DNA from: a virus
IMG/VR virus record: IMGVR_UViG_3300045988_170068
Reading direction: 5' to 3' (one strand)
DNA length: 64,000 nucleotides
Shown here one piece after another: positions 12,029 to 48,940 of this stretch. How positions within the stretch are numbered: the first letter of the stretch is position 1; each line of letters begins with the position of its first letter. Under the pieces are notes generated by a model. That model ran no database searches. It had not been told where the DNA came from and was given only the letters and a program-made list of their open reading frames with translations. The translations under genes and the position numbers were made by a program.

Positions 12029-12031
12029 ATC

Positions 12032-12053: not shown

Positions 12054-12101
12054 AGCTAATAAGCTGTAACATAAGGAGCTCACAATCCTGCCTAAGTAGA
12101 T

Positions 12102-12310: not shown

Positions 12311-12339
12311 TCGGTCATTGTTGACTGACGCCCTACCGA

Positions 12340-12378
12340 ATATGCTATCTTGGATCATCAGTAGCATATGCAGTTTTT
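12340..12378 (+). terminator. terminator-like hairpin
   Basis: ATATGCTA/TAGCATAT stem with a 14-nt loop, then GCAGTTTTT. Confidence 0.45.
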
Positions 12379-12430
12379 CAACTCTTTTTCTGCTCATCGA
12401 GTGTGTTGATAATAAAAGAGTCATATACAT

Positions 12431-12522
12431 GGCGCGATACCGAAGTGGTCACAACGGAGCGGTCTTGAAAACCGTAGGCGGTGATGAGCCGTCCGTGGGT
12501 TCGAATCCCACTCGCGCCGCCA
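12431..12522 (+). tRNA. tRNA-Ser(TGA)
   Basis: Acceptor GGCGCGA/TCGCGCC, anticodon loop CTTGAAA, long variable arm, T-loop TTCGAAT and encoded CCA. Confidence 0.9.
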
Positions 12523-12747
12523 TGCCTTTTCATATGCTGACATTAGATTGTCAAGTTGATGAAAGTGAAACCAACTATGCTGGCAGGTTGTCGACGGGTT
12601 GAAGAGCCGTAGAGTCTAAACTATTCTCCTCTATTCTAGAAAGAGTCGGAAAGCTAGGTCCCGTAGTAGCAGCCGAAAAGTATCCTAAAACGATAGGCGT
12701 TAAAACATGTTTTATAGGTGACAGCCTGGAAAGACAGGCAAATATAT

Positions 12748-12824
12748 TGCAGGGTGGACAAGTAGCTAAGTCGCCAGCTTCATGCGCTGGAAATCGCAGG
12801 TTCAAATCCTGCCCACTGCAACCA
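12748..12824 (+). tRNA. tRNA-Met-like (CAT) with bulged acceptor stem
   Basis: Anticodon arm CCAGC-TTCATGC-GCTGG and T arm GCAGG-TTCAAAT-CCTGC are clean. The acceptor TGCAGGG pairs with CC(A)CTGCA only if one A is bulged. The D-loop lacks GG. Confidence 0.5.
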
Positions 12825-13152
12825 TTGTCTACTGGTCACCATCTACATACGACAATCAAAACTGCATAGGAGATGGGATGGGCAACGGCAGCCCTGATAA
12901 GTGAAGCGATGTTCGAGTCATCAACCTGATCCTGTTCGACTCAGGCAGGGCATGGTGCAAAACTTATCAAGAGGAACTAAGTACCTGCCTCGCTTCGGAT
13001 AGCAAAGAAGGCGTTAGTAGTAATCGAAAAACTACTCGCGGTTACAGGGAGGGAGCGGCGTTATAGGTAAACCTCCTGGGTGTTCTGCTATCGTGCACCT
13101 TAGAAAGGCGAAGCTTTTCAGTTAGGACTAATCCGGCCAGATAGCAAAATAT

Positions 13153-13226
13153 GCGGATATAGTGTAACGGTAACATGCGACTCTTCCAAAGTCGTGTTGC
13201 GGGTTCGAGTCCCGTTATCCGCTCCA
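13153..13226 (+). tRNA. tRNA-Gly(TCC)
   Basis: Acceptor GCGGATA/TATCCGC, anticodon loop CTTCCAA, T-loop TTCGAGT and encoded CCA. Confidence 0.9.
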
Positions 13227-13244
13227 TAGAGGAAGGTGACAAAT

Positions 13245-13580
13245 ATGTCTGTTTATAAATGCCCAATTTGCGGAGGAAGAGGATTTGTTCCTTGCGGATT
13301 CTATTCAAGTCAAACATATGATGGAAGCTCAGTGACTAATTCTACTTCAAACGAAGTTTGTAGAAGCTGTCATGGTAGAGGAATCGTATTTGATGAATTC
13401 TTAGGATCAACTTCAAATAGTATTCATAGATGTTGCAGTAATTGTGAAATGAACGATGGTTTGGTTTATACATCTAATCCCCCTAAGTACAGATGTACTT
13501 TATCTGGTTATTTCAATGAAGGAACACATGTATGCAATCTAGATGATATTTTGTCAAATGGAAATAACCAATCTAAATAA
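13245..13580 (+). CDS. Cys-rich protein with DnaJ-type CxxCxGxG zinc-finger repeats
   Basis: CPICGGRGFV and CRSCHGRGIV. ATG 13245 is preceded by GGAAGGTGA. Confidence 0.5.
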   Translation: MSVYKCPICGGRGFVPCGFYSSQTYDGSSVTNSTSNEVCRSCHGRGIVFDEFLGSTSNSIHRCCSNCEMNDGLVYTSNPPKYRCTLSGYFNEGTHVCNLDDILSNGNNQSK

Positions 13581-13625
13581 GTTGATACTCGGTAGGGCGC
13601 TGCGGTGTGCTTGACCGTGTGTTTC

Positions 13626-13661
13626 CGTCCAGGTGTTGGCGCACCTGGACGCTTTCTTTTT
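13626..13661 (+). terminator. rho-independent terminator
   Basis: 10-bp GC-rich stem CGTCCAGGTG/CACCTGGACG followed by CTTTCTTTTT. Confidence 0.8.
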
Positions 13662-13668
13662 CTATCTA

Positions 13669-13692
13669 GTAAATTATTAACGAATGATTAAG
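13669..13692 (+). promoter_or_regulatory. 24-nt box GTAAATTATTAACGAATGATTAAG (copy 1)
   Basis: Identical 24-mer at 59339-59362. Both copies lie just upstream of TTGACT -35 elements. Confidence 0.5.
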
Positions 13693-13696
13693 ACTA

Positions 13697-13725
13697 TTGA
13701 CTTTTCACAAGAATCGTTATATAAT
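13697..13725 (+). promoter_or_regulatory. sigma-A-type promoter (TTGACT-17-TATAAT)
   Basis: -35 at 13697-13702, -10 at 13720-13725, 17-nt spacer. The spacer and -10 contain the AATCGTTAT box. Confidence 0.65.
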
Positions 13726-13778
13726 ATGTACATAAGTCAGCCAACACATCAAAAAGCTTCAAAGCTAAGGAGAACAAA

Positions 13779-14009
13779 ATGAACGGATACATTATCAAAG
13801 CTACATACCTCACCGGTCCGAACACAGGAAGATCTTATTTCCTTCAAAAAGCGCTTGAAAGAAGCAACATGCTTGAACACGTATTAGAGAAGAGATACAG
13901 AGAGTATCAATCTAAAAACGGGTACAATGTATCGAAATACATGATCAACGAATTGATGAAATACACACCGTATTTCGTCAAAACTGTTCACAATTCGGAT
14001 GTTCACTGA
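13779..14009 (+). CDS. hypothetical protein
   Basis: 76-aa ORF with AAGGAG upstream of the ATG. Confidence 0.5.
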   Translation: MNGYIIKATYLTGPNTGRSYFLQKALERSNMLEHVLEKRYREYQSKNGYNVSKYMINELMKYTPYFVKTVHNSDVH

Positions 14010-14022
14010 GGAGGTATTCATA

Positions 14023-14295
14023 ATGATCATCAATTCTCGTTTTGAAGCAAGAAAGTCTGTTGAGCATAGTTTCGAGCTTGCGTCCAAGCTTCATATGACT
14101 GTCATCAATGTCTTTCATAAGGACTTGATTACAGGTGAAATTGTTCTCACTGATATGTTCAGCCACGATAGTATTCAAGCCGTTACATGGAGAGACAATT
14201 ACCTTGAATCGTTAAAGAAGCTAGAGGTACCTTACATTTGCTATGTGGGAGATCATTTCACAGAAGCATCTGGCTACTTAGACTTTGAGGAGTGA
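14023..14295 (+). CDS. hypothetical protein
   Basis: ATG 14023 lies 7-8 nt after GAGGAGG. The track start at 13999 lacks an SD. Confidence 0.5.
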   Translation: MIINSRFEARKSVEHSFELASKLHMTVINVFHKDLITGEIVLTDMFSHDSIQAVTWRDNYLESLKKLEVPYICYVGDHFTEASGYLDFEE

Positions 14296-14300
14296 CAATC

Positions 14301-14597
14301 ATGGATAGAAAAGTTTTTGAAGCTTTATCTTCTGCAAATAAATTGATCAACCATCAACTTGATTGTCAAAAGGCCGCTATTCTTGATATAAAAAAGGCCA
14401 TTGAAGAAACATCGAAAGCTTTCAATATCACTTACAAACAGGGCCGCAGTGAAGGATTTGAATCCGAAACTATTGAAGACACAGCAGGAATATATGCTCT
14501 GCTTGTTGGAGCAAAATCTGAAATCGAATGTGCTGTTTCTAAACTTGAGGAAGCTAAGAACATGATGCCCAATTTTGATAAAGGAAAGAATATATGA
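14301..14597 (+). CDS. hypothetical protein
   Basis: ATG 14301 follows GAGGAG. Confidence 0.5.
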   Translation: MDRKVFEALSSANKLINHQLDCQKAAILDIKKAIEETSKAFNITYKQGRSEGFESETIEDTAGIYALLVGAKSEIECAVSKLEEAKNMMPNFDKGKNI

Positions 14598-14989
14598 AAC
14601 GAATAATCAAGAAATCGGCTGTAATCGGGATGGCTAAAGAACCGTCAAGAGGTGTTTTTTGGATAGTTGATGGAAAAGTCCTGTCATTTCCTTTTTACAA
14701 TGACATAACTTCTCCCGGCGTTGCTAAATCCGGATTGACTTACAACCACAAAAATTTGTGGCCCGATGTTAAACCTAAAGGATGCAATAAACCGTATAAT
14801 TACTACCCTCGTGGACGAGTGGAGCTAGGAAAGAAAAATCCTATCATATATGTAAATCCTAACTTCGATAAATATGATTTAGCAGAAGTTAGAAAGGATT
14901 TTGGACTTATCAATGAGCCTAAAGTAGTATTTGATAATTCAGATCATTACAAATGTTATCTAGATGACGGATGGAAGCCAGATAAATAA
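14594..14989 (+). CDS. hypothetical protein (FWIVDG...YYPRGRV motifs)
   Basis: 131-aa ORF coupled to the upstream gene (ATGA). I cannot name the family. Confidence 0.5.
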   Translation: MKRIIKKSAVIGMAKEPSRGVFWIVDGKVLSFPFYNDITSPGVAKSGLTYNHKNLWPDVKPKGCNKPYNYYPRGRVELGKKNPIIYVNPNFDKYDLAEVRKDFGLINEPKVVFDNSDHYKCYLDDGWKPDK

Positions 14990-15011
14990 CAATCGTTATA
15001 TAAAATGTAGT
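14990..15011 (+). promoter_or_regulatory. 22-nt promoter-like box (CAATCGTTATATAAAATGTAGT)
   Basis: Extended box ending 10 nt before tRNA-Leu(TAA). Confidence 0.5.
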
Positions 15012-15021
15012 AATCAAATTT

Positions 15022-15106
15022 GCTGGTGTGGTGGAACAGGCAGACACAGGGGACTTAAAATCCCTCGGAGAAATCCTTACGAGTTCGAATCTCGTCACCA
15101 GCACCA
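15022..15106 (+). tRNA. tRNA-Leu(TAA)
   Basis: Acceptor GCTGGTG/CACCAGC, anticodon loop CTTAAAA, long variable arm, T-loop TTCGAAT and encoded CCA. Confidence 0.9.
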
Positions 15107-15108
15107 CT

Positions 15109-15140
15109 GTCGTAGTCAAATTGATTACGTGGATTGAAAC
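15109..15140 (+). repeat. solitary type I-C-like CRISPR repeat unit A
   Basis: GT-CGTAGTC-AAATT-GATTACG-TGGATTGAAAC, 32 nt. It has a 5' GTCG, a 7-bp stem (one G-U) and the tail CGTGGATTGAAAC, as in canonical I-C repeats. Begins 2 nt after the tRNA CCA. Confidence 0.7.
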
Positions 15141-15160
15141 GAATCCCGTCACCAGCACCA
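15141..15160 (+). repeat. 20-nt duplicate of the tRNA-Leu(TAA) 3' end, directly abutting repeat unit A
   Basis: GAATCCCGTCACCAGCACCA versus 15087-15106 GAATCTCGTCACCAGCACCA: 19 of 20 identical. Confidence 0.85.
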
Positions 15161-16134
15161 AATGAGGGTTTGTCCTCAAGTAATGCTACTGAAAGTGCAT
15201 CCTTACGGTGGAGGTATTGGTTAACCGTTATTAGATTATTGTAAAATACAATAGAAAATAAAAGCGAGGTTCAATTCAACAGTAGTTCAATTTTGTTAAA
15301 TGAATTACTTTTGATGGTCCGGTACGATTCCGGAGGGATTGTCTTCATTCCTAACGCTTAGACCTATCTTTTCTATATAGCTGGCCACTATTCTGCCAAT
15401 CGACGGATTGGATGAGGTTTCGACCATCAGATAAACGGCTGAAAATGTATAGGCGTTTACTGCTTAACGAAATGAAGCGGGCTGTTGTTCATCTCAGGAT
15501 AAGAAGATGGCGTGCCAGCCGACATTGTTAGCCTATTTCGGTAGGTATTCGGTTAGAATAAGGAATGCTACTTATTCGGGAGCTAAATTGAATGTGCATC
15601 CTTCTGAAGTTGGAGTCTCGAAGATAACGTTTCTGAGAGATAGATTTTAAGTTAGTACTTAGAATTGAGGTTAAACTTGTCAGCTCCTAAAAGTTAATAT
15701 CGAGCAAACTCACCATAAAGTGTTCTAGCTGCTAATCTAAAAGAGAATGAGATGATTAGAAGGATTGAGCGAATCTAGATGCTCGTTATTATATTTGCCA
15801 TCTGCTGGTCCTACACAGCAGTGAGGATGGTAGGACATCCAATAACTAAGCGAACAGCCGAAATAGCGCCGGACACCTCGCCCGTTGAGGAGGGAATTTG
15901 AACAAAAAGGTGAGATATGTTCACACCAGAACATAAGGGCATATGGAATGGTGGAAATGCTTACTAAACCAAGCTGCCAGGTTATCTGATAAGAAGTCAG
16001 GATTTGAGGCAGATAAGTGATAGAATGAAGTAATCTCATTTGACTTTGAGAAGAACCTTTCATATTATCACTTAATGAGTTCTATGCGTTGCAAACACTT
16101 CTCTCATTCGGGAAAGAAAAGAAGGGTTAGACAT
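15161..16134 (+). ncRNA. ~1 kb ORF-free, structure-rich block between tRNA genes (candidate large ncRNA and/or ORF-less intron-like element)
   Basis: No plus-strand ORF. Long-range pairs TGATGGTC 15312-15319 with GACCATCA 15422-15429. Pseudoknot-like CTGCTG-GTCCTAC-A-CAGCAG...GTAGGAC near 15800-15838. An 18-mer is shared with the polA intron. Confidence 0.4.
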
Positions 16135-16209
16135 GGCGCCTTGGTCAAGTGGTTAAGACACGGCCCTTTCACGGCTGTAACACGGGTTCGAGTCCCGTAG
16201 GCGTCACCA
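16135..16209 (+). tRNA. tRNA-Glu(TTC)
   Basis: Acceptor GGCGCCT/AGGCGTC, anticodon loop CTTTCAC, T-loop TTCGAGT and encoded CCA. Confidence 0.9.
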
Positions 16210-16300
16210 TCACATCATATAAGATGTGTTAAGTGTGATATATGGTAACAGATTCCGACCTAAGCGCACGGGTCTTCTAGAGGCCTTCGGAATCGAATAT

Positions 16301-16376
16301 CCGGGTGTAGCTCAGATGGTAGAGCGCGTGGTTTGGGACCACGAGGCCGCTGGTTCGAAACCAGTCACTCGGACCA
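16301..16376 (+). tRNA. tRNA-Pro(TGG)
   Basis: C1:G72 acceptor CCGGGTG/CACTCGG, anticodon loop TTTGGGA, T-loop TTCGAAA and encoded CCA. Confidence 0.9.
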
Positions 16377-16406
16377 TTTTTCACCCAACAGGAATGGGGT
16401 AGTAGT

Positions 16407-16949
16407 ATGAAGAAATTGATTAGACGAATGCCTGTAGTGAAAAAGTATATTGATATTATAGTCAATATTGACGACTACAAAAATGATTCATCTATTGCTG
16501 CTAATTCATTCACAAAAGCAAGAACATTTCAACCATCCGTTAAGAAAAAGTTCAAGATTTCAGATGAAGCGTTAAATATGTATACTGATTTCTTAAATTG
16601 CATACTCGAAGTAATTGTTAGAAACGGATTGAAAATATCTAAGCAATATCAATCTAAGAAAGGATACACATACTATATTCAGGTTGATCATATTGGATTA
16701 GTTGACGGAACAAAAATAAAGTACGAAATAACATTCAGGATAAACAATAATGTTAATCCTACTTTGAACAAAGGGCCTAAATTTGAGGGCAGCAGACAAA
16801 TGGTCATGCCTATAATGAAAAATATCAAGCTTGGAAAATTTGATCCTGCTGTCTACTCCGAAGCAATGTTTCATCTAAATAAAGTTTGTAAAGGTATACG
16901 AGAAGACAACAGAGATATTCTAGTAAACGAAGACATCTATTTCAATTGA
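16407..16949 (+). CDS. hypothetical protein
   Basis: 180-aa ORF between tRNA clusters with a weak SD. Confidence 0.5.
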   Translation: MKKLIRRMPVVKKYIDIIVNIDDYKNDSSIAANSFTKARTFQPSVKKKFKISDEALNMYTDFLNCILEVIVRNGLKISKQYQSKKGYTYYIQVDHIGLVDGTKIKYEITFRINNNVNPTLNKGPKFEGSRQMVMPIMKNIKLGKFDPAVYSEAMFHLNKVCKGIREDNRDILVNEDIYFN

Positions 16950-16957
16950 AATATGTA

Positions 16958-16979
16958 GAATCGTTATATAACATGTAGG
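16958..16979 (+). promoter_or_regulatory. 22-nt promoter-like box (GAATCGTTATATAACATGTAGG)
   Basis: Extended box followed by about 100 nt of ORF-free hairpin-containing sequence. Confidence 0.45.
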
Positions 16980-17080
16980 CGGCATCCATCTCGGATACAA
17001 TACTACAACGTAGATAGAGAAAACATTTTCTCTGTAATGAGAGGTAAGATACTCTTGAAGTAGCCTAAAAAAATAAATTA

Positions 17081-17102
17081 GCATCGTTATATATCATGTA
17101 GC
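17081..17102 (+). promoter_or_regulatory. 22-nt promoter-like box (GCATCGTTATATATCATGTAGC)
   Basis: Extended box ending 9-10 nt before tRNA-Thr. The leader CATCAAATAT resembles TAATCAAATT upstream of tRNA-Leu(TAA). Confidence 0.5.
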
Positions 17103-17111
17103 ATCAAATAT

Positions 17112-17187
17112 GCTGGATTAGCTCAGTTGGCAGAGCGCGTGATTTGTAATCTCGAGGTCAAGGGTTCGAGTCCCTTATCCAGCTCCA
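17112..17187 (+). tRNA. tRNA-Thr(TGT)
   Basis: Acceptor GCTGGAT/ATCCAGC, anticodon loop TTTGTAA (one U-U mismatch in the stem), T-loop TTCGAGT and encoded CCA. Confidence 0.85.
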
Positions 17188-17189
17188 TT

Positions 17190-17221
17190 GCCACAATTTA
17201 TTAGATTGTGCGGATTGAAAC
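17190..17221 (+). repeat. solitary type I-C-like CRISPR repeat unit B
   Basis: GC-CACAATT-TATTA-GATTGTG-CGGATTGAAAC, 32 nt, with the same 2+7+5+7+11 layout as unit A. Begins 2 nt after the tRNA-Thr CCA. Confidence 0.65.
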
Positions 17222-17276
17222 CATCTCATCTCCTTCCTGATCCAGTTTCTGGTCTGGATAAAAACCATGTAAATAT

Positions 17277-17352
17277 GCTGATGTAGCTCAACAGGTTAGA
17301 GCCGGCGACTTATAATCGTCAGATTCGAGTTCGACTCTCGGCGTCAGTACCA
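17277..17352 (+). tRNA. tRNA-Ile(TAT)
   Basis: Acceptor GCTGATG/CGTCAGT (two G-U pairs), anticodon loop CTTATAA, T-loop TTCGACT and encoded CCA. Confidence 0.8.
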
Positions 17353-17545
17353 GGGGTAACCAAACTACCTTAATCGTTTGGTGAGGACTCAAGTTACTCG
17401 AGTTAGGTCAGCTTGACATCCAATAGTGAGGACCTACGACAGGTGAGAATGACGGCTTAGTCCTTTCTTGAATAAACAGAACCTGACCCATTGGCCAAAA
17501 GGGTGAACGCTGCTTCAAGGTAAAGAAAGGCAACAAATTCTATAT

Positions 17546-17622
17546 GGGAGCATAGCTCAGTTGGTTAGAGCGCATGACTGTTAATCATGATGTCGAAGGT
17601 TCGAGTCCTTCTGTTCCCGCCA
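17546..17622 (+). tRNA. tRNA-Asn(GTT)
   Basis: Acceptor GGGAGCA/TGTTCCC, anticodon loop CTGTTAA, T-loop TTCGAGT and encoded CCA. Confidence 0.9.
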
Positions 17623-18170
17623 GCGCCTATATCAGTCTAGGTCTTGAAATGATATAGAGACCAATGCATTATCTTTTTAGAAAGGTAGTGTATCTGATGA
17701 AAAAGAGATCATCAACTCTCGGCGAATTATAACTTGACGAATTTTTCTTTTGAAACAAAGAAGTAGCAGGTTCGTCTCTGCGCTTAATCTACTGAACTGC
17801 AATGTTGATGTAAGCAGTAATTAGGTTCCCAAACCAATTCAGGGAGATTAAGAAAAAGTTTGCTTATTTAGTAGAAAGAGGGTTGGAGGGGCACAGCAAG
17901 TAGAATAAAAGGACCTATCCAGAATGCCAGGATTGACATCATAAAATGATGTCAATGAGAGCATCAGTATTAGACCACGGTGAAGCGATGTGATGATGAT
18001 AGGAATTGGGACTATCTAATTTCATCTAATGCCGGTATACATCTGGTTGTGTAGGTAGGCAACAAATTTGAAAGCTATTACAGGATGTGCCAAGGAGTAG
18101 AAGTAATCACCTCTGTCTACTGTGTATTTCTTCTAAATAAGTTCAACTTTTTTATTAAGGAGTTTGAAAA
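17623..18170 (+). ncRNA. ~550-nt ORF-free hairpin-rich block (candidate structured ncRNA)
   Basis: No ORF of 60 aa or more on either strand. Perfect 10-bp hairpin TTGACATCAT-AAA-ATGATGTCAA at 17932-17954. CTATATCA/TGATATAG near 17626-17662. Confidence 0.3.
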
Positions 18171-18386
18171 ATGAAAACAATCACTTTTATCAGTTATGAT
18201 AAATATCCAAAAACATTTAGAAAGTTTCACATTTTTAAGAAGCGTTTTTCTTCGTTATCAGATATTGCTAGATTCCTGCAAGTTTCTAGTAAAATCTATT
18301 TGAAAAATCCGATGAACGAGTTGTCTAAAGACGAACTAAGAATTCTTTCAATGAAAGTTCGATCGTTAAATAAAATGAAGGTGTAG
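18171..18386 (+). CDS. hypothetical protein
   Basis: 71-aa ORF with AAGGAG upstream. Its last 10 nt overlap the start of tRNA-Lys. Confidence 0.4.
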   Translation: MKTITFISYDKYPKTFRKFHIFKKRFSSLSDIARFLQVSSKIYLKNPMNELSKDELRILSMKVRSLNKMKV

Positions 18387-18452
18387 CTCAGTAGGTAGAG
18401 CACCTGCCTTTTAAGCAGGCTGTCAAGAGTTCGAATCTCTTCACCTTCACCA
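18377..18452 (+). tRNA. tRNA-Lys(TTT)
   Basis: Acceptor GAAGGTG/CACCTTC, anticodon loop CTTTTAA, T-loop TTCGAAT and encoded CCA. Confidence 0.9.
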
Positions 18453-18458
18453 AAATAT

Positions 18459-18543
18459 GCACCTGTGGTGGAACTGGCAGACACGCTTGACTTAGGATCA
18501 AGTGCCTTCAGGTTTAAGGGTTCGAGTCCCTTCAGGTGCACCA
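18459..18543 (+). tRNA. tRNA-Leu(TAG)
   Basis: Acceptor GCACCTG/CAGGTGC, anticodon loop CTTAGGA, long variable arm and encoded CCA. Confidence 0.9.
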
Positions 18544-18548
18544 TATAT

Positions 18549-18587
18549 GGAGGATTAGCTCAGCTGGTTAGAGCAACTGACTTACAT
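18549..18587 (+). pseudogene. 5' fragment of a disrupted tRNA-Val(TAC) gene
   Basis: GGAGGAT-TA-GCTC-AGCTGGTTA-GAGC-A-ACTGA-CTTACAT. No complementary TCAGT follows. Confidence 0.7.
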
Positions 18588-18630
18588 CTTTAGTGTAACC
18601 CAAATAGTAATTACCTAATATAAATGTGAG

Positions 18631-19455
18631 GTGATAAATTTGAGCAAACTTAAAGATGTAATGTCAAGAATATCAGATATGACGAACGGGAGGTATTCAA
18701 TAGCAGGAGAATTCAAAGGATATGATCAACCCTTATCAATAAGATGCAATATTCATAAACAAGTATTTGATATAAAACACGCACAATATTTACTTGAGGT
18801 CTGTAAAAATCCTAACAAAATATTCTATGGATGCAAAGAATGTAGAAAAGAAAAGGACGGCACAATTGAATTAAATTGCGAAATTTGTGGAAAGAAAATT
18901 ATCAGACCTAGAGGTTGGGCAAATGGAAACAAAAGCAAATTTGCTTTCTGTTGTAGAGAACATAAGAATATTGCCCAAAGGTTAGAATCAGGATTTGGTG
19001 ATATGATTCCATCGCATTATGGAACAAGAAAAGATTACCGATACATAGCTTTCAGAATATATCCGCATAAATGCGCAGTTTGCGGCTGGGACGAGGATGA
19101 AAGAATATTGGAAGTTCATCATAAAGATATGAACAGAGAAAACAATTCCGACGATAACTTAATTATCCTTTGCCCAAATTGCCATTCAAAAATATCAAAA
19201 GGATTGTATATGCTGCAAGGTAATTTACTTGTTGATCCCGATGATAACTACTTAAAGTTCTTTAGTTTGCATACTTACAGAACTAAATCTCCTGGTATGT
19301 CTTGTAAAGTAATTTGCGTAGAAGATGGCTTAGTTTTCAAGTCAATAACAGAATGTGCAAATCACTACAGAGTATCGGATACAACTATCAATTATGCTAC
19401 TGTATCTGATAATAAATTATGCAAATCCTTAGATAAGCATTTTGAGAGGATATAA
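18631..19455 (+). CDS. HNH homing endonuclease
   Basis: HHKDMNRENNSDDNLIILCPNCH. Several CxxC pairs. C-terminal VFKSITECANHY DNA-binding-like module. The start is GTG 18631, TTG 18640 or ATG 18661. Confidence 0.8.
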   Translation: MINLSKLKDVMSRISDMTNGRYSIAGEFKGYDQPLSIRCNIHKQVFDIKHAQYLLEVCKNPNKIFYGCKECRKEKDGTIELNCEICGKKIIRPRGWANGNKSKFAFCCREHKNIAQRLESGFGDMIPSHYGTRKDYRYIAFRIYPHKCAVCGWDEDERILEVHHKDMNRENNSDDNLIILCPNCHSKISKGLYMLQGNLLVDPDDNYLKFFSLHTYRTKSPGMSCKVICVEDGLVFKSITECANHYRVSDTTINYATVSDNKLCKSLDKHFERI

Positions 19456-19457
19456 AT

Positions 19458-19532
19458 GCACCGTGTCCTCGGTGGTCTGAGGGCTTGGCTTACATCCAAG
19501 TACATTGAGTTCGATTCTCAAACGGTGTACCA
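19458..19532 (+). tRNA. tRNA-Val(TAC), divergent replacement copy
   Basis: Acceptor GCACCGT/ACGGTGT (G1-U72), anticodon arm CTTGG-CTTACAT-CCAAG, T arm TTGAG-TTCGATT-CTCAA and encoded CCA. Starts 2 nt after the HNH stop. Confidence 0.8.
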
Positions 19533-19559
19533 AAAGTTCGAATCTTGCATTCTCCACCA
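19533..19559 (+). pseudogene. 3' fragment of the disrupted tRNA-Val gene
   Basis: ..GTTCGAATCTTGC-ATTCTCC-A-CCA. ATTCTCC pairs with the GGAGGAT acceptor strand at 18549. The 5' strand of the T stem is missing. Confidence 0.6.
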
Positions 19560-19565
19560 TTATTT

Positions 19566-19642
19566 GGCCAAGTAGTTCAGTTGGTTAGAACGCCAGCCTG
19601 TCACGCTGGAGGTCGAGGGTTCGAGCCCCTTCTTGGTCGCCA
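19566..19642 (+). tRNA. tRNA-Asp(GTC)
   Basis: Acceptor GGCCAAG/CTTGGTC, anticodon loop CTGTCAC, T-loop TTCGAGC and encoded CCA. Confidence 0.9.
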
Positions 19643-19647
19643 TATTT

Positions 19648-19722
19648 GGGTCCGTATTTCAATGGGAGAAAGCTTCTTTTGCACGGAAGAGGTTGCGTGT
19701 TCGAATCACGTCGGATCCACCA
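19648..19722 (+). tRNA. tRNA-Ala(TGC)
   Basis: Acceptor GGGTCCG/CGGATCC with the G3-U70 identity pair, anticodon loop TTTGCAC and encoded CCA. Confidence 0.9.
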
Positions 19723-19843
19723 TTTGAGACTTCAGCCAAGTTGGCTAGAAAGTCGTATTAAATGACATACAATGAGACGATACCAAGACTTTAGTTCGTT
19801 ACAGAGCGGTGACTGAATGTCAAATCCCTTATGTCATTTATCT

Positions 19844-19920
19844 GGGCCTTTAGCTCAGTTGGTTAGAGCCTCCGGCTCATAACCGGATCGTCCCGGGTTC
19901 GAATCCCCGAAGGCCCACCA
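19844..19920 (+). tRNA. tRNA-Met(CAT) (elongator or Ile2-type)
   Basis: Acceptor GGGCCTT/AAGGCCC, anticodon loop CTCATAA, one C-C mismatch in the T stem and encoded CCA. Confidence 0.8.
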
Positions 19921-20074
19921 TAATTGGTACAACACGACTGTAACGGCTCCCGCGGTTTAGAGTTGTATCCCGTTTCTTAGTTGAAGCGTGAAGTGTCAAG
20001 AGAGCCTCACCAGACGAGCCATATGGGCACCACCTAGCGGTGAAAAGATATGATAAGCTCGTCAATCATTAAAT

Positions 20075-20151
20075 ACCTCAGTAGCTCAGCTGGATAGAGC
20101 AACTGCCTTCTAAGCAGTAGGCCACAGGTTCGAGTCCTGTTTGAGGTGCCA
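20075..20151 (+). tRNA. tRNA-Arg(TCT)
   Basis: Acceptor ACCTCAG/TTGAGGT, anticodon loop CTTCTAA, T-loop TTCGAGT and encoded CCA. Confidence 0.85.
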
Positions 20152-20224
20152 GAAAGCACATTAAATAACGTGGAATAAAAATAGAGGTTGTGCTGGGACG
20201 TTGAGCCTCTTGTAAAAACAATAA

Positions 20225-20293
20225 GATGCTTTACGCCAGTAGGTAGACGGCTCTTGTACAGAGAAGCCGCTGGTTCGATTCCAGCAATCATCA
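20225..20293 (+). pseudogene. degenerate tRNA-like sequence (GTA/Tyr-like loop), no CCA
   Basis: Good T arm GCTGG-TTCGATT-CCAGC. Acceptor GATGCTT/AATCATC has one mismatch. The D and anticodon arms pair poorly, and only 44 nt precede the T stem. Confidence 0.3.
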
Positions 20294-39275: not shown

Positions 39276-39363
39276 TTGAACCGTTATTGTATTTGAATAA
39301 TCGGATGAATCAGATGTAGAAGGAGATGCAAATACTTAATCATCATGTCTGTTGATATATCTG

Positions 39364-39416
39364 ACCTGTGTTTTGTAAATTTCCTGAAATCCACAGGTAA
39401 AACAAAAATAAAGGAG
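39364..39416 (+). promoter_or_regulatory. riboswitch-like SD-sequestering pseudoknot, copy 1 (upstream of yhhQ-like gene)
   Basis: P1 is ACCTGTG/CACAGGT. 21-nt loop TTTTGTAAATTTCCTGAAATC. A-rich tail TAAAACAAAAATAAAGGAG. Loop TTCCT can pair with the SD AGGAG. Confidence 0.45.
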
Positions 39417-39426
39417 TAGCATACAT

Positions 39427-40176
39427 ATGAATAAACTAAAACAAATCATTGTGACAGAAGCAAAGGACTACAAAATCCTTCTAAGAAACGCTCCAACTGT
39501 TACAATGATTTTCTTTACCCTCAGCGTAGTTCTGATGAACATTTTTGCATCAAAAGAACTGCTAAATATTGAATACCTTGCTCTTGACTGTGGATTCCTT
39601 CTGTCTTGGATGAGTTTCCTTTGCATGGATATGCTTACAAAGAGGTTTGGAGCAAGAGCAGCAATCAAGCTATCTCTTTTCGCTGTATTCATGAATCTTA
39701 TTTGCTCTGGAATCTTCTTTTTTGTTTCTAGAATTGGAAACAACTGGAGTGTATTTTATAACTTCAATGATAGCATCGCTAATGATGCAGTGAATGGAGT
39801 ATTCGGTGGAACATGGTATGTACTAGTAGGATCTATGACTGCATTCATCGTTTCCGCTATTGTAAATGCTATCATAAACGATGGAATCGGAAAGCTTATA
39901 AAGAAGAAAAATTTCTTTGAATATGCAATGAGATCATATTTTTCTACAGCTATCGGTCAATTTGTAGACAACTTTGTTTTTGCTACAATTGTTTCCAAAG
40001 TTTTCTTTGAGTGGACATGGACTCAAGTTGTGTTTTGCTCGATTGCAGGCGCAGCAGCTGAGCTTCTTTCCGAGGTTGTATTCAGCCCTGTAGGATTCAA
40101 AGTTTGCAAGCGATGGGAAAAGGAAGAAGTAGGAAAAGAATATATTGATTTTACTAAGGAGGCTGCTAAGACTTGA
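39427..40176 (+). CDS. yhhQ: YhhQ/VUT-family queuosine-precursor transporter-like membrane protein
   Basis: Polytopic membrane protein of about 250 aa. FLCMDMLTKRFGARAA resembles the YhhQ D..tE.yG...A motif. Sits within the que genes. Confidence 0.55.
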   Translation: MNKLKQIIVTEAKDYKILLRNAPTVTMIFFTLSVVLMNIFASKELLNIEYLALDCGFLLSWMSFLCMDMLTKRFGARAAIKLSLFAVFMNLICSGIFFFVSRIGNNWSVFYNFNDSIANDAVNGVFGGTWYVLVGSMTAFIVSAIVNAIINDGIGKLIKKKNFFEYAMRSYFSTAIGQFVDNFVFATIVSKVFFEWTWTQVVFCSIAGAAAELLSEVVFSPVGFKVCKRWEKEEVGKEYIDFTKEAAKT

Positions 40177-40844
40177 TTGTAATTGTTACAGGTTCTTCTA
40201 ACGGTATTGGTCGAGAAACAGCTAAGAAATTTCTTGACAGTGGGGACATTGTGCACGGAATTGACATTAGTCCTGAATATGATAAGGAGTATCTACAAAC
40301 TAAAGTAGGAAGATATTTCCATCATGTAGCAGATGTAGGAAAGTTTGAACAGCTTCCTACCCTCTATGATCCAGCTATTCTCGTCAATAACGCAGGTAGG
40401 CAAAATGGTCCGAATGATATTGAAACAAATTTGATTGGTGTAATGAACTGCACTAAGAAATATGCACTTTCAAACAGAAAGATTAAATCAGTTGTAAATC
40501 TTGCATCTGTATCAGCTCACAATGGATGCGAATTTCCTGAATACACTGCATCAAAGGGCGGAGTCTTATCCTATACTGTTTGGACAGCCAAACAAATTGC
40601 AAAATATCAAGCAACTTGCAACAGCATCTCTTTTGGTGGTGTAGAAACTGAATTGAACGCACAAGTCATGAATGATAAAGAAAAATGGAAAGATATCATG
40701 AGGATGACTCCACTAAAGAAATGGGCGAGTGCAAAAGAAGCAGCAGATTGGATCTACTTTGTTGCAAAAGTAAACAAGTCTATGTCAGGACAAGATATCA
40801 TAATTGATAATCTTGAGATGCTAAATCATAGATTTGTCTGGTGA
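40173..40844 (+). CDS. short-chain dehydrogenase/reductase
   Basis: VTGSSNGIGRE (TGxxxGxG), NNAG and the catalytic YTASK (YxxxK). TTG start overlaps the upstream stop. Confidence 0.75.
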   Translation: MIVIVTGSSNGIGRETAKKFLDSGDIVHGIDISPEYDKEYLQTKVGRYFHHVADVGKFEQLPTLYDPAILVNNAGRQNGPNDIETNLIGVMNCTKKYALSNRKIKSVVNLASVSAHNGCEFPEYTASKGGVLSYTVWTAKQIAKYQATCNSISFGGVETELNAQVMNDKEKWKDIMRMTPLKKWASAKEAADWIYFVAKVNKSMSGQDIIIDNLEMLNHRFVW

Positions 40845-40853
40845 AGTATTCAA

Positions 40854-40906
40854 AGAGAGTTTTGTATTCCTTTGAAACCCTCTCTGAAAATAAAAATAAC
40901 AAGGAG
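40854..40906 (+). promoter_or_regulatory. riboswitch-like SD-sequestering pseudoknot, copy 2 (upstream of queF)
   Basis: P1 is AGAGAG/CTCTCT. 20-nt loop TTTTGTATTCCTTTGAAACC. Tail GAAAATAAAAATAACAAGGAG. The loop is homologous to copy 1 and the stem covaries. Confidence 0.45.
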
Positions 40907-40915: not shown

Positions 40916-41434
40916 ATGTCTGAATCAAACAAATCAAGGACAGCTGAAGAGCTGTCTGGAGTAACTCTACTTGGCAACAATAACACCAAGTATAGCTGCG
41001 ACTACAATCCAGAAGTTCTAGAAACATTTGTAAACAAACATCCTGACAACGATTATGTTGTAACATTTGATGCATATGAATTTACATCAAAGTGTCCAAA
41101 AACAGGTCAGCCTGATTTCGCAAAAGTTGTAATTAGCTACATTCCTGACGATAGAATGGTTGAAAGCAAGTCCCTTAAACTTTATCTCTTCTCTTTCCGA
41201 AATCATGGAGATTTTCATGAAGACTGCATGAACATTATCATGAAAGACTTGATAAAGCTTATGGATCCAAAGTACATTGAAGTGAAGGGTATTTTCTCTC
41301 CCAGGGGTGGTATATCGATCTTTCCTTTCGTAAACTATGCAAATCCAAAATTCAATTATCAGGATTTTGCAAAATCTAGAATGCTTGATGCACTTAGAGA
41401 TGCAAGCAACAGAAAAGTAAGATACGACATGTAA
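40916..41434 (+). CDS. queF: NADPH-dependent 7-cyano-7-deazaguanine (preQ0) reductase
   Basis: [14 protein letters not shown] (catalytic Cys) and the QueF motif ESKSLKLYL. Unimodular YkvM type. Confidence 0.85.
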
Positions 41435-41448: not shown

Positions 41449-42330
41449 ATGGATGAAAATTGGGTAAGAATTCCAGGATATGAAAATTTTTATCTGATAT
41501 CTTCAATTGGAAGAATAAGAAGCCTTCCTAGAAATATCGTAGCTAAAGATGGAAGGCGAATAAGTTTTCATGAAAGAATTTTGAAACAATCATTAGACGA
41601 AGATGGATATCTAAATATAAGCTTAACAGATGAACATGGTCAAACAAAGCAATACAGAGTGTCTAGATTAGTTGCAATGACATTTATACCTAACCCAGAT
41701 AATCTACCTATTGTTAATCACTTAGATGGAAATAAGCAGAATAACAATGTAGATAACTTAGAATGGTGTACCGTTAGGCGAAATAATTTCCATGCTTATG
41801 AAACAGGACTAAATAAAACAAATGTACCTGTTCCTGTAACTTGTCTAGATAATATGATGAAGTTTGAGTCATATTCTGAAGCAGCTAGATATGTAGGCTG
41901 TGACATAGGAAATATAATTGAATCAATAGAAATGAAATCTTGTTGCAAAAATAGATTATGCTTCTGCAAAACTTCTGAAATTCCAGATGATATAGAAAAG
42001 TATCTATTTCTTGCAAGAAGAAAATATGATAACAACAAAGTTGCGTACAGATCTGAAATAAAATGTTTAGATTCCGGAGAAGTTTATAAAAGTATTGCAG
42101 ACTTCGCAAGACAAATAGAAGGAAAGGCTGGATATATCCAGGAATGTATAGCAAAGAAAAGGCTGTACAAAGGAAAATGTTATGTAAGGACAGAAGATGT
42201 TAGAAAATACCAATGGAATGAAACAGAGTATTGTAGATGGGTGCATGAAAGAAAATTAGCTAACTCTAGAAGAGACTATCGTTATTTAGAAAGGCTTGAT
42301 GAATATGGAAAACAAAAGAAATTTATGTAA
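41449..42330 (+). CDS. HNH homing endonuclease (NUMOD4 + HNH_3 type) with two C-terminal DNA-binding repeats
   Basis: WVRIPGYENFYLISSIGRIRS. VNHLDGNKQNNNVDNLEW. Repeats VTCLDNMMKFESYSEAARYVG and IKCLDSGEVYKSIADFARQIE. Confidence 0.8.
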   Translation: MDENWVRIPGYENFYLISSIGRIRSLPRNIVAKDGRRISFHERILKQSLDEDGYLNISLTDEHGQTKQYRVSRLVAMTFIPNPDNLPIVNHLDGNKQNNNVDNLEWCTVRRNNFHAYETGLNKTNVPVPVTCLDNMMKFESYSEAARYVGCDIGNIIESIEMKSCCKNRLCFCKTSEIPDDIEKYLFLARRKYDNNKVAYRSEIKCLDSGEVYKSIADFARQIEGKAGYIQECIAKKRLYKGKCYVRTEDVRKYQWNETEYCRWVHERKLANSRRDYRYLERLDEYGKQKKFM

Positions 42331-43021
42331 GAAAGCACTTGTGCTCTCGTCAGGGGGTGTGGACTCAACTACTTGCGTAGGTATCGCTGTAAAAGATGTA
42401 GGTTCGGAAAATGTGAGTACTGTTTCTGTCTTTTATGGCCAGAAACATAATAAGGAACTTGAATGTGCTGACAAAGTTGCAGAATTCTACAATGTAAAGC
42501 ATTATGTTCTTGACCTGTCCAATGTTCTTCAGTACAGCAATTGTTCTTTGATGAAGAACAGCACGGAAGACATTCCTATGATGAGTTATGCAGAACAGAT
42601 TGAGAAGAACGGTGAAGGCAAAGTTTCTACCTATGTTCCCTTTAGAAACGGCTTGATGCTATCTGCAGTAGCTGCGCTGGCTCAGTCTATTTATCCCGAT
42701 GACGATGTAGATATCTACTTAGGTGCTCATGCGGACGATGCAGCTGGCAGAGCTTATGCAGATTGTAGTGAAGAATTTACTTCTGCAATGAATACAGCTA
42801 TTGTAATTGGCACATATGGTAAAGTTAGAGTAGTTGCGCCGCTTGTTAATCTAAATAAAGCAGGAGTAGTCAAGCTTGGCTTATCTATTGATGTACCTTA
42901 CAAATACACATGGAGTTGTTATTCAGGCGGAGATAAGCCTTGCGGACATTGTGGTACTTGCATTGATAGGGCTAAAGCATTTGAAGCAAACGGAATTTCC
43001 GATCCGGCTTTGGAGGACTAA
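42299..43021 (+). CDS. queC: 7-cyano-7-deazaguanine synthase
   Basis: PP-loop LSSGGVDST and C-terminal Zn site CGHCGTCIDR. The start overlaps the HNH gene by about 30 nt. Confidence 0.9.
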   Translation: MNMENKRNLCKKALVLSSGGVDSTTCVGIAVKDVGSENVSTVSVFYGQKHNKELECADKVAEFYNVKHYVLDLSNVLQYSNCSLMKNSTEDIPMMSYAEQIEKNGEGKVSTYVPFRNGLMLSAVAALAQSIYPDDDVDIYLGAHADDAAGRAYADCSEEFTSAMNTAIVIGTYGKVRVVAPLVNLNKAGVVKLGLSIDVPYKYTWSCYSGGDKPCGHCGTCIDRAKAFEANGISDPALED

Positions 43022-43024
43022 AAT

Positions 43025-43462
43025 ATGTATGCGGTTAAGACAAAAGTTTCATTTGAAGCTGCTCATCGTTTATACAATGTAGACACTTATTCATCCGAAT
43101 GTAGAGATAATCTTCACGGCCATTCGTACAAAGTTGAAGTTCTTGTTGGTGTAAATGATTTGAATAACGCTGGAATGGTCATTGATTTCAAACTTCTGAA
43201 GAAGATAATCAAGGATGTAATTGAAGACAAATACGATCATTCTTGCATTCTTCGAAATAGCGACCCTATTGCAAAGGTGGTTAAAGAAAACTGTAAGAAG
43301 GTTATCATTGTTGACAACAGTCCCACAGCTGAATGGATGGCTAAAGAGTTCTATGAAATGATTCAATCTAGAATGAACACATTTTCTTCTGATTTACATG
43401 TTATTTCAGTAGGAGTACAAGAAACAGAAAATAACATTGGATATTATCTTCCGGAGGAGTAA
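43025..43462 (+). CDS. queD: 6-carboxy-5,6,7,8-tetrahydropterin synthase
   Basis: FEAAHRL...HGHSYKVEV...GMVIDF...DHSCIL. Confidence 0.85.
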   Translation: MYAVKTKVSFEAAHRLYNVDTYSSECRDNLHGHSYKVEVLVGVNDLNNAGMVIDFKLLKKIIKDVIEDKYDHSCILRNSDPIAKVVKENCKKVIIVDNSPTAEWMAKEFYEMIQSRMNTFSSDLHVISVGVQETENNIGYYLPEE

Positions 43463-43464
43463 AT

Positions 43465-44106
43465 ATGAAAGTTGTTGAAATATTCAAAAGCATTGACGGT
43501 GAAGGTAAGCGGGCTGGTATGCCCGCAACCTTCATTCGACTTGCTTTCTGTAATCTTCGATGCAGTTACTGCGATACTTCATATGCATTTGACGATAAAT
43601 GCGCTGAAGATATGACAGTTGATGAAATTGTACATAAGTGTATTGAGCTGGATTGTCCTTCTATTACAGTTACAGGTGGGGAACCTCTTATTCACAGAGA
43701 TGTTGAAATTCTGCTTGCTGAACTTGACAGAAACAACTTTGATGTAAATGTAGAAACAAATGGAACAATTGACCCATCTTATTACCATAAGCTAAAGAAT
43801 GTTTGGTTCACTATTGACTACAAGTCTCCGTCTAGTGGATGCGAAAATGCTATGAATCCTGAAGCATTCAAAACGCTTCGTCATCAAGATGTATTGAAAT
43901 TTGTAGTAGGAAGCGATGCAGATCTTGAAGCAGCACTGAAAGCTATTCGAGAATATAGACCTTCTGCCCAGGTTTACTTTAGCCCTGTATTTGGATATGA
44001 TGCAAAGAACATTGTAAACTTTCTTCTTTTCAATAAGTTGAATAGCTGCAAAATTCAGCTTCAGATACACAAATACATCTGGCCTGTAGATATGAGAGGT
44101 GTATGA
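43465..44106 (+). CDS. queE: 7-carboxy-7-deazaguanine synthase (radical SAM)
   Basis: EIFKSIDGEG and the CNLRCSYCDT cluster motif. Confidence 0.85.
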   Translation: MKVVEIFKSIDGEGKRAGMPATFIRLAFCNLRCSYCDTSYAFDDKCAEDMTVDEIVHKCIELDCPSITVTGGEPLIHRDVEILLAELDRNNFDVNVETNGTIDPSYYHKLKNVWFTIDYKSPSSGCENAMNPEAFKTLRHQDVLKFVVGSDADLEAALKAIREYRPSAQVYFSPVFGYDAKNIVNFLLFNKLNSCKIQLQIHKYIWPVDMRGV

Positions 44107-44330
44107 TGGACAAAGAAAAAGTGCAAGAAGCTGTAAGAAATCTTCTTATTGCTTTAGGAGAAGATTTTACTAGACCAGGTCTAGTAGAAACTCCTAAGAG
44201 AGTAGCGAAGTATTGGGAAGAATTACTTGAAGGTGAAAATTACACTAACAGGGAAATAGCTGATATGTTCAGGAAGGACTTCCAAGTAAGCTATGATTCA
44301 ATGGTTATCAAAGAGGGTGTAGTAGCATGA
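44103..44330 (+). pseudogene. N-terminal fragment (75 aa) of a second, divergent GTP cyclohydrolase I
   Basis: About 40% identical to residues 1-75 of the following FolE (LLIALGEDFTRPGLVETPKRVAKYWEELLEG vs [31 protein letters not shown]). Stops just before the catalytic core. ATGA overlap at both ends. Confidence 0.6.
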
Positions 44331-44902
44331 AAAATATTGATAAAAATAAAATTGAAGAGCTTACAAGAGAGTTCTTGATAGCTTTAGGCGATAATCCTGA
44401 CAGAGAAGGATTGAAGAAGACTCCAAATCGAGTTGCAAGAATGTGCGATGAATTGTTTGAAGGTATGATTTATACAAATGAGGAAATTGCACATAAGTTT
44501 GATACATGCTTCGAAGATCTAGAAACTGGAGATCTTGTAGTTGAAAGTAACATCCCTATTCATAGTTTTTGTGAACATCATTTAATGTTGATGTATGACA
44601 TGACTGTTGCAATTGGATACATTCCAAACGGAAGAGTAATTGGATTGAGCAAGCTAGCAAGAATTGCAGATATGGTTAGTAAAAGACTTCAGCTTCAAGA
44701 AAAAATTGGAACTGACATAGCAGAAATTCTATCAATCATCTTAAGAACTGAAGATATAATTGTAGTTATTCAAGGGAAACACGGATGCATGACAGCACGT
44801 GGAATTAAATCCAGAGAAGCAATAACTAGAACAGCTACACTTAGAGGAAGATTTGAATCAGATTCAGATCTAAGGTCTGAATTCTATTCGCTCATCAAAT
44901 AA
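44327..44902 (+). CDS. folE: GTP cyclohydrolase I
   Basis: SFCEHH zinc motif, [15 protein letters not shown] and VIQGKHGCM. Confidence 0.9.
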
Positions 44903-48166: not shown

Positions 48167-48292
48167 GAGGTGATGCTACTAGAAATTTGAAAAGATATGA
48201 TAGCCAATATAGGATTACACATCAACACATTAACTAATGATCTGCGCCAATCTCGCAATGATCGCAACCTATCAAGAAAGGAATATTTATCA

Positions 48293-48940
48293 ATGGATGT
48301 AGTAAAGAATATGCGAGGAAGTATCTGGTGGTTGAAAGATGAATTTGATAAATACAAAGGAGAAAGAGGAATCCTTAGAGGTTCTCGTCCTGTTATCATT
48401 ATCAACAATCCTGCCAATGAAAATGATAATTGCACCATCACATATCTTCCTATTTCTAAATGCGAATCTCATGCAGGTGATGATAGCCTTATTCAGATGT
48501 TCTATCAGGTACCTATTCAGATTCCCGGTAACAAGTCAAGTTATGTTTGCTGTAACAGCATCATGACTACAACTACTCTTCATCTTGGAGAGTATATTGG
48601 TCAAATTTCTGAAAGTAAACTGAACGAAGTAGAAGCTGAATTGATGAGATATCTTTCTCTTTCTGAAAAAGTCATCACAAGGGAAGTAGTTAAGGAAGTA
48701 AAAAAATCAGAAGATGCTACCAAAACAACTTCTTTCTCAATTACAGACGCAGTTGCTTGTCCGGAACTCAAGAAAGTATTTTCTAACTGCACTGAAATTG
48801 CTAAGGAACTTGATTGCTCTCCTGCTTCTATCAGCAAAGCAAGCAGATGGGGAAGCAAACTGATGCACAAATACACTGTGTTTAAGGTAGCAAACGCTAC
48901 TGGAAACTATATTGGCAAAACTAAGGAGGAAACTAAATGA
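48293..48940 (+). CDS. PemK/MazF-like fold protein with C-terminal HTH-like module
   Basis: RGSIWWLKDEF..GSRPVIIINNP...ITYLPISK matches the PemK pattern G.I.w......RP.lv.s......v.piT. C-terminal VFSNCTEIAKELDCSPASISKA. ATG 48293 is preferred over the track start at 48197. Confidence 0.4.
   Translation: MDVVKNMRGSIWWLKDEFDKYKGERGILRGSRPVIIINNPANENDNCTITYLPISKCESHAGDDSLIQMFYQVPIQIPGNKSSYVCCNSIMTTTTLHLGEYIGQISESKLNEVEAELMRYLSLSEKVITREVVKEVKKSEDATKTTSFSITDAVACPELKKVFSNCTEIAKELDCSPASISKASRWGSKLMHKYTVFKVANATGNYIGKTKEETK

Follow-up and report, generated by a model that had tools for sequence, protein, structure and literature searches.

The 64,000-nucleotide stretch of viral DNA analysed here (IMG/VR virus record IMGVR_UViG_3300045988_170068, below called the window) holds two copies of a small RNA element, one immediately 5′ of a gene for a YhhQ/Vut_1-type transporter and the other immediately 5′ of queF, the head of a queF-queC-queD-queE-folE cluster. 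Both copies belong to a real, conserved and mostly phage-borne pseudoknot family. In regard to function, and judging from sequence comparison, each element is probably a translational OFF riboswitch and a relative of class I preQ1 riboswitches that folds as an H-type pseudoknot, with preQ1 as the most likely ligand and preQ0 as a possible one.

An earlier note on this DNA had located two homologous riboswitch-like pseudoknots upstream of yhhQ and queF, and both were confirmed at these places, in the sequence as well as by Pfam and TIGR matches of the downstream genes. The letters of the two copies had also been transcribed accurately, except for one surplus T in the tail of copy 1, which actually reads CACAGGT AAAAC. 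The parts of the elements are as follows, where P1 and P2 are helices and L1 to L3 are loops (three-digit numbers such as L342 denote loci, and SD stands for Shine-Dalgarno).

39364-39416, + strand: copy 1, whole element, followed by an ATG at 39427
39364-39370, + strand: copy 1, P1 5′ strand ACCUGUG, with G39370 as the invariant closing G
39371-39391, + strand: copy 1, hairpin loop of 21 nt, UUUUGUAAAUUUCCUGAAAUC
39371-39380, + strand: copy 1, L1, conserved UUUUGUA and then AAU
39381-39385, + strand: copy 1, P2 5′ strand UUCCU (anti-SD), partner of AGGAG at 39412-39416, supported by P2 covariation
39386-39391, + strand: copy 1, L2 GAAAUC, with C39391 as the putative specificity cytosine, equivalent to C17/C15 of preQ1-I
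39392-39398, + strand: copy 1, P1 3′ strand CACAGGU
39399-39411, + strand: copy 1, A-rich L3, AAAACAAAAAUAA
39412-39416, + strand: copy 1, P2 3′ strand, which is the SD sequence AGGAG of yhhQ
40854-40906, + strand: copy 2, whole element, followed by an ATG at 40916
40854-40859, + strand: copy 2, P1 5′ strand AGAGAG
40860-40879, + strand: copy 2, hairpin loop of 20 nt, UUUUGUAUUCCUUUGAAACC
40860-40866, + strand: copy 2, L1 UUUUGUA
40867-40872, + strand: copy 2, P2 5′ strand UUCCUU, partner of AAGGAG at 40901-40906
40873-40879, + strand: copy 2, an unpaired U and then L2 GAAACC, with C40879 as the putative specificity cytosine
40880-40885, + strand: copy 2, P1 3′ strand CUCUCU
40886-40900, + strand: copy 2, A-rich L3, GAAAAUAAAAAUAAC
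40901-40906, + strand: copy 2, P2 3′ strand, which is the SD sequence AAGGAG of queF

The proposed homology of the two copies was substantiated by a single covariance model (R1), based on seven variants and given P1 as its sole helix, which recovered both of them at 78.8 and 59.3 bits, the next match across the 64 kb scoring 13 bits. The same model found around 55 distinct relatives in viral, metagenome and metagenome-assembled genome (MAG) contigs, and also in the cultured pneumococcal phage Dp-1. Among metagenome loci retrieved by pattern, members of the family scored 50 bits or more, and noise did not exceed 26. Scans of viral contigs with a DNA pattern that left the P1 5′ strand and the SD unspecified gave 36 loci and 28 distinct matches, and a flanking stem of 6-8 bp, an SD sequence and a start codon were present in 26 of the latter. 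Searches of 185,579 species genomes (one per species) with the same DNA pattern returned 38 matches, three of them real, each having a 7-bp flanking stem and an SD; among the 35 chance matches, 34 lacked flanking pairing and one had a single pair. A looser DNA pattern and a tail-anchored one were swamped by chance matches in A/T-rich DNA, and tighter patterns were used. Each of the three real matches is located on a gut MAG contig of 127-142 kb; two of these contigs show the window order yhhQ-SDR-queF-queC-queD-queE-folE (SDR, short-chain dehydrogenase/reductase) while the third has phage-like genes, so these contigs are most likely phage genomes binned into MAGs. A bacterial origin of the element was rejected, given only three real matches in that many species genomes, all on phage-like contigs. 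Viral pattern scans, one metagenome scan and protein-only retrieval of 79 loci with transporter relatives together yielded 177 instances, many of them redundant, from which 56 distinct sequences with 28 different inner P1 stems were aligned.

Covariation and conserved positions

The alignment of these 56 sequences (A7) was anchored independently of the pairing under test, with the loop right-aligned at the invariant GA and the tail left-aligned after the last AAAUAA before the SD. The six inner pairs of P1 are standard in 334 of 336 cells, and double changes at five of them involve 29, 16, 17, 7 and 25 sequences. The covariation of P1 that the earlier note had seen between the two window copies is thus extended to 28 distinct stems, and the relatives retain the loop sequence as well as the stem complementarity. 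The closing G-C pair of P1, with G on the 5′ strand, is found in 56/56 sequences; its C is partly imposed by the DNA patterns, and it is likewise present in all protein-retrieved members.

The second helix, proposed earlier as an H-type pseudoknot between the loop and the SD, also finds support in covariation among relatives. The three central pairs of the P2 core are standard in 166 of 168 cells and switch from C-G to U-A on both sides in 27, 20 and 26 sequences, an alternation that arises because the number of U residues between CCU and GA (0, 1 or 2) tracks the number of bases from AAAUAA to AGG. The complete structure has a covariation score of 0.645 versus 0.226 in shuffles, with none of 500 shuffles attaining it. 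Pairing is 85% in register and falls to 35-68% once the 3′ partner is shifted by 1-3 columns. P2 also has independent covariants at the sequence level, namely CUCAU:AUGAG in L284/L460 (where an intact transporter gene of 246 aa follows), CUACU:AGUAG in L461, and AACCUU:AAGGUU in L342 and L466b. Both helices of the pseudoknot are supported by these covariants together with the covariation in A7. When P2 duplex energies were compared between cognate and non-cognate tails, a blunt test, L461 alone stood out, its own tail being equalled by 2 of 67 non-cognate ones.

Conservation outside the helices is concentrated in the three loops. L1 starts with UUWUGUA in all 56 sequences (W being U in 54 and A in two), and its opening UU was not imposed by the search pattern. 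L2 follows GA-M-R-B-C, where GA and the last C are invariant (56/56), and the end of L3 is conserved as Y-AAAAA-UAA. The dinucleotide preceding the P1 3′ strand is CC in 32 sequences, UC in 12 and GC in 12, and it is AC in none of the 56.

A further complementarity was observed between UUUUGU of L1 and AYAAAA of L3 (window positions 39371-39376 with 39402-39407; columns 8-13 with 60-65 of A7), pairable in register in 96% versus about 65% when slid, the lone G always facing the lone pyrimidine. It shows zero double changes, P1 as well as P2 would be crossed, and it was not adopted as a helix; a tertiary contact or an alternative state could account for it. An inner hairpin within the P1 loop was rejected on inspection, its register differing between variants. 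The yhhQ copy of one lineage has a GAAA-tetraloop hairpin, CAGCAGAAAUGCUG, inserted in L3 between P1 and the A-rich tract (L003 8900-8933 on the − strand; L402/L403 at about 2420-2490; L297, L341, L351).

Downstream genes and expression platforms

The downstream gene, assigned by blastp, belongs to the YhhQ family for 113 of the 177 instances and is queF for 34. The remaining ones comprise start-codon mis-picks before yhhQ or queF, short leader open reading frames (ORFs) ahead of yhhQ, two terminator-type copies and contig ends, and an unrelated downstream gene was encountered in 0/177. The pairing of the element with these genes persists across different phage backbones and three transporter subfamilies, and the downstream gene set is the classic preQ1 regulon. 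In the window, the surroundings of the two copies are as follows.

39352-39363, + strand: possible promoter −10 region 5′ of copy 1, UUGAUAUAUCUG
39427-40176, + strand: queuosine-precursor transporter of the YhhQ/Vut_1 family, 249 aa, target of copy 1 (Pfam PF02592, 2e-22)
40173-40844, + strand: SDR/FabG-like oxidoreductase gene separating the two elements, co-transcribed context of copy 2
40916-41434, + strand: QueF, NADPH-dependent preQ0 reductase (preQ1 synthase), 172 aa, target of copy 2 (TIGR03139, 1e-49)
42296-44902, + strand: queC, queD, queE-like radical SAM gene, folE fragment and folE, context not directly covered by the elements

The transporter also matched TIGR00697 at 1e-11 and 45 bits, under the cut-off of 50.95. 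In regard to transcription, A/T-rich boxes resembling GATATAT or TATAAT lie 3-10 nt before P1 in relatives, and a generic sigma-70 promoter scan gave no convincing match. The order yhhQ-SDR-queF occurs in L170 and L188 as well. To our knowledge, the known preQ1 pathway includes no SDR, so the enzyme encoded between the two elements may make a modified 7-deazaguanine or a pterin.

Two loci, L342 and L466b, combine the aptamer with a different platform upstream of queF. Their tail holds neither an SD nor a start codon, and the P2 3′ strand, AAGGUUACA, instead shares bases with an antiterminator, whose competitor is a 13-bp terminator followed by a U-tract. On folding, the full transcript formed the terminator (−22.8 kcal/mol, z = −3.4), and the antiterminator was formed when the 3′ half of the terminator was left out. 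In one sub-lineage, the element stands before a leader ORF of 8-25 codons ahead of yhhQ (L355, L380, L372, the L466 copy at 2277, L462, L457/L275), and several of the leader peptides have the motif PRISCLSPP in common. The end of the leader ORF in L462 overlaps a terminator-like hairpin, which suggests translation-coupled attenuation.

The 79 protein-retrieved loci carry the long-loop element in about 44 cases, a preQ1-I-like element with a loop of 11-12 nt in about 18 and intermediate loops in about 11, so that the long-loop element is replaced by shorter ones in front of homologous transporter genes. All three loop classes show the G-C top pair, U as the first and C as the last loop base, an A-rich tail and pairing between loop and SD.

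Ligand, alternative explanations and DNA modification

In the mechanism that we propose, P1 would form a hairpin stem of 6-8 bp under the invariant G-C closing pair, and the 3′ tail would fold back, laying the YAAAAAUAA stretch along P1 and pairing the SD bases with the CCU-containing loop segment into P2. The ligand would lie between P1 and P2, and four residues would recognise it: the invariant C that precedes the P1 3′ strand, the invariant U that follows the P1 5′ strand, an L3 adenine and the G that closes P1. With the ligand bound, P2 would become more stable, the SD would be masked, and translation of the transporter and of QueF would cease. Supply of the 7-deazaguanine base, which such phages put into their DNA, would thus be under feedback control by the end product. 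Besides the gene set, three arguments point to preQ1 as the ligand. Repression of a transporter together with QueF makes most sense as end-product feedback, homologous transporter genes elsewhere are preceded by canonical-looking preQ1-I pseudoknots, and the positions that contact preQ1 in class I (specificity C, closing G, first U of L1 and L3 adenine) are all present and invariant.

Several observations weigh against such a mechanism. L1 has 7-12 nt with the strongly conserved UUWUGUA, compared with 1-2 nt in class I, and because it is so long and conserved the pocket may differ from that of class I. A never occupies the position before the specificity C, unlike in types II and III of class I, and the U of type I is found there in only 12/56 sequences. 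The invariance of UGUA, GA, CC and AAAAY was partly imposed by the search patterns, with confirmation coming from the smaller protein-retrieved subset. Single-sequence folding was no better than that of shuffles (z = −0.8, 0.0 and −0.6), and the minimum free energy fold of the window copies is not P1; weak folding of this kind is expected for an aptamer that is tiny and A/U-rich. The elements were reported by no family of Rfam 15, and its PreQ1, preQ1-II and preQ1-III models, whose use had been suggested earlier, were silent on the elements even at E ≤ 10, as applied to isolated 65-nt segments with no positive control. Similarly, the PreQ1 model gave nothing at the gathering threshold on the window, nor at E ≤ 10 on 1.75 kb. 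These Rfam negatives are of limited weight, because they come with no positive control and because the short- and intermediate-loop elements, including the L432-type, went unreported too. Finally, a DpdA gene was looked for in the 64-kb window and not found.

A first alternative is that the same pseudoknot binds another ligand, namely preQ0, another 7-deazapurine intermediate or a phage-specific derivative, or that it binds two stacked ligands as type I does, with the conserved L1 (UUWUGUA), L2 (GA...) and L3 (YAAAAAUAA) forming a changed pocket. Conservation of the three loops is indeed well above what class I needs, the base before the specificity C departs from types II and III, and an SDR is conserved in the cluster. 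In variant riboswitches, changed pocket bases often mean a changed ligand, according to a review statement, and YhhQ is described as transporting preQ0 as well as preQ1 (PMC5372724). Yet all four pocket hallmarks of class I are retained, repression of queF at high levels of its substrate preQ0 would be less sensible than feedback by preQ1, and short-loop preQ1-I-like elements precede homologous genes in other phages. We therefore regard a changed ligand or stoichiometry as unlikely, though worth keeping in mind. Somewhat less unlikely, and put forward here as a tentative extension, is that the elements constitute a distinct, essentially virus-borne type (either a "type IV" within class I or a preQ1 class of its own, the fourth) with a pocket unlike that of canonical class I. 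Such a type might favour preQ0, accommodate two ligands or recognise a phage-specific 7-deazaguanine derivative, and it might meter a precursor for DNA hypermodification and not for tRNA queuosine.

It is much harder to see the element as a translational operator for a phage or host protein or for a trans-acting RNA, in which the loop would be the recognition site, P1 a scaffold, and no small molecule would be involved. A variable stem with a conserved loop typifies protein-binding hairpin operators as well, and the weak single-sequence folding would fit them. Against this, the element has followed yhhQ or queF into unrelated phage backbones with no further conserved neighbour in common, its conserved positions fall on those of the preQ1-I pocket, and the covariation between P2 and the SD is not required by simple loop recognition. 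In addition, one aptamer is joined to two platforms, SD sequestration and a terminator, both of which predict OFF for the ligand-bound state, and such an arrangement is typical of riboswitches and counts against a simple protein operator. An operator thus appears improbable. Most improbable of all is a ligand-independent structured leader (an mRNA stabiliser, translation tuner or thermosensor) that fixes the expression level, for although SD-occluding pseudoknots can be constitutive, the unpaired L1, L2 and L3 are strongly conserved, the association is exclusively with two genes of one pathway, and two states are implied by the competing antiterminator and terminator pairings of L342 and L466b.

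Returning to a preQ1-responsive switch, a cultured carrier is available in Streptococcus phage Dp-1 (L472, HQ268735), whose QueF shares 68.5% protein identity with that of the window. The Dp-1 element, at 78-123, reads AGCAG-UUUUGUAAACCUGACAUC-CUGCU-AAAUAAAAAUAA-AGGAGG and scored 44.6 bits with R1 (E about 1e-8). It is placed between the annotated −10 box and ribosome-binding site of gp1/queF, with the −10 box ending 8 nt before P1; the GenBank record lists promoters, ribosome-binding sites and terminators there, and no riboswitch feature. The modified base dPreQ1 was measured in Dp-1 DNA by Hutinet et al. (PMC6884629), who do not mention riboswitches. As no DpdA gene was found in the window, a link of its elements to DNA modification would be by analogy with Dp-1. 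The element was not found in other GenBank phages with related QueF genes, and searches of cultured phages for transporter homologs found none.

If the proposed function is true, the smallest known riboswitch fold would be extended by a conserved L1 of 7-12 nt, and phages would carry their own metabolite sensor over both uptake and synthesis of 7-deazaguanine for anti-restriction DNA modification. With dPreQ1 already measured in its DNA, Dp-1 would make genetics and biochemistry feasible together. About 55 distinct sequences went unreported by the Rfam-based annotation used here, and the element could serve as a marker for phage 7-deazaguanine clusters in metagenomes.

The earlier proposal of a phage as the carrier is borne out by the gene content of the window, with genes for tail-fibre-like proteins, DnaB, a primase, DNA polymerase A and 18 tRNAs, the tRNA genes being clustered at 11367-20293, every one on the + strand. 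Its close relatives are IMG/VR contigs of about 145 kb, and no near relative was found among the GenBank phages searched. An ORF for an HNH/NUMOD homing endonuclease (41449-42330, + strand) lies between queF and queC and overlaps the start of queC, and similar endonuclease ORFs stand elsewhere in the cluster in relatives. A 75-aa ORF at 44103-44330 (+ strand), directly 5′ of the full-length folE (44327-44902), matches only the N-terminal third of GTP cyclohydrolase I; it could be a duplicated piece or what an inserted mobile element left behind. In some relatives QueF has 503-506 aa (L005 574-2085, + strand; L188, a reverse-strand ORF of 506 aa), where an intein-like insertion with HNH-type motifs splits the catalytic-cysteine motif (FTSKC | CPKTGQPDF). 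Further downstream in the window, 48197-48940 (+ strand) codes for 247 aa that include a PemK/MazF-like toxin domain.

Comparison with known preQ1 riboswitches

A 2024 review divides preQ1 riboswitches into three classes with five motifs. No paper describing the present element was found in the literature covered, which excludes the Dp-1 genome paper (PMC3019816) and McCown et al. 2014; "preQ1-IV" gave no match, and no paper combined riboswitch, DpdA, preQ1 and phage. The earlier suggestion of a variant or new preQ1/preQ0-sensing class coincides with where the evidence lands, with a variant of class I being favoured.

The plan of the element agrees with that of preQ1-I (RF00522), as proposed earlier, including its pocket positions. 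Both are H-type pseudoknots composed of a P1 hairpin and a P2 helix between the loop and an SD-containing tail, and in both the pair closing P1 is G-C (G in the 5′ strand), which is the floor of the pocket. A cytosine directly precedes the P1 3′ strand (56/56 here, partly pattern-imposed and confirmed in protein-retrieved loci), and the first base after the P1 5′ strand is U, the equivalent of U6, within a UU that is found in types I and III and in 56/56 sequences here. An A-rich L3 follows P1, though it is longer here, and queF and preQ0/preQ1 transporter genes lie downstream. The predicted logic is likewise OFF by sequestration of the SD, and a terminator-type platform occurs too, as in the B. 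subtilis riboswitch. The closest types are type I (e.g., Carnobacterium antarcticum) and type III (E. coli), and the pocket hallmarks match the alpha binding mode of class I (PMC11625349).

The main difference, also noticed earlier, is the loop, which has 18-23 nt (19-23 in A7 and 18 in Dp-1) whereas class I has about 12 (11-12); the window copies exceed the canonical 12 nt by 8-9 nt. P1 has 6-8 bp in 54/56 sequences and 5 bp in L444, L342 and Dp-1, compared with 5 bp in class I, and L3 has 12-15 nt or more with YAAAAAUAA, compared with about 8 nt. In addition, L2 opens with an invariant GA, the tail lacks the conserved CUA of type I, and the element is found almost only on phage contigs. The preQ1-II (RF01054) and preQ1-III (RF02680) riboswitches serve the same pathway with pseudoknotted aptamers, and class II also integrates the SD. 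They are, however, larger HLout pseudoknots with an extra embedded hairpin and trans C-preQ1 pairing, while the present element has about 53 nt and only P1 and P2.

The shorter-loop phage elements stand between class I and the long-loop element. They comprise short loops of 11-12 nt (L432, L424, L456) and intermediate ones of 15-19 nt (L441, L443, L451, L463, L468, L470), lie about 30-120 nt upstream of the transporter gene and lack UUWUGUA. A short-loop example is L432 318-361, ACCUG-U-GCCAG-AGAAC-CAGGU-...AAAAC-UGG. R1 did not report the short-loop groups of L432 and L424 at E ≤ 1 and scored the other short and intermediate elements at no more than 32 bits (L456 25, L441/L442 about 32, L468 20.6). 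Besides the features common to all loop classes, they share the transporter family downstream with the long-loop element, and L468 and L465 also have its L2 sequence GAAAUC. This graded series of loop lengths favours an expanded subtype of class I over an unrelated new class.

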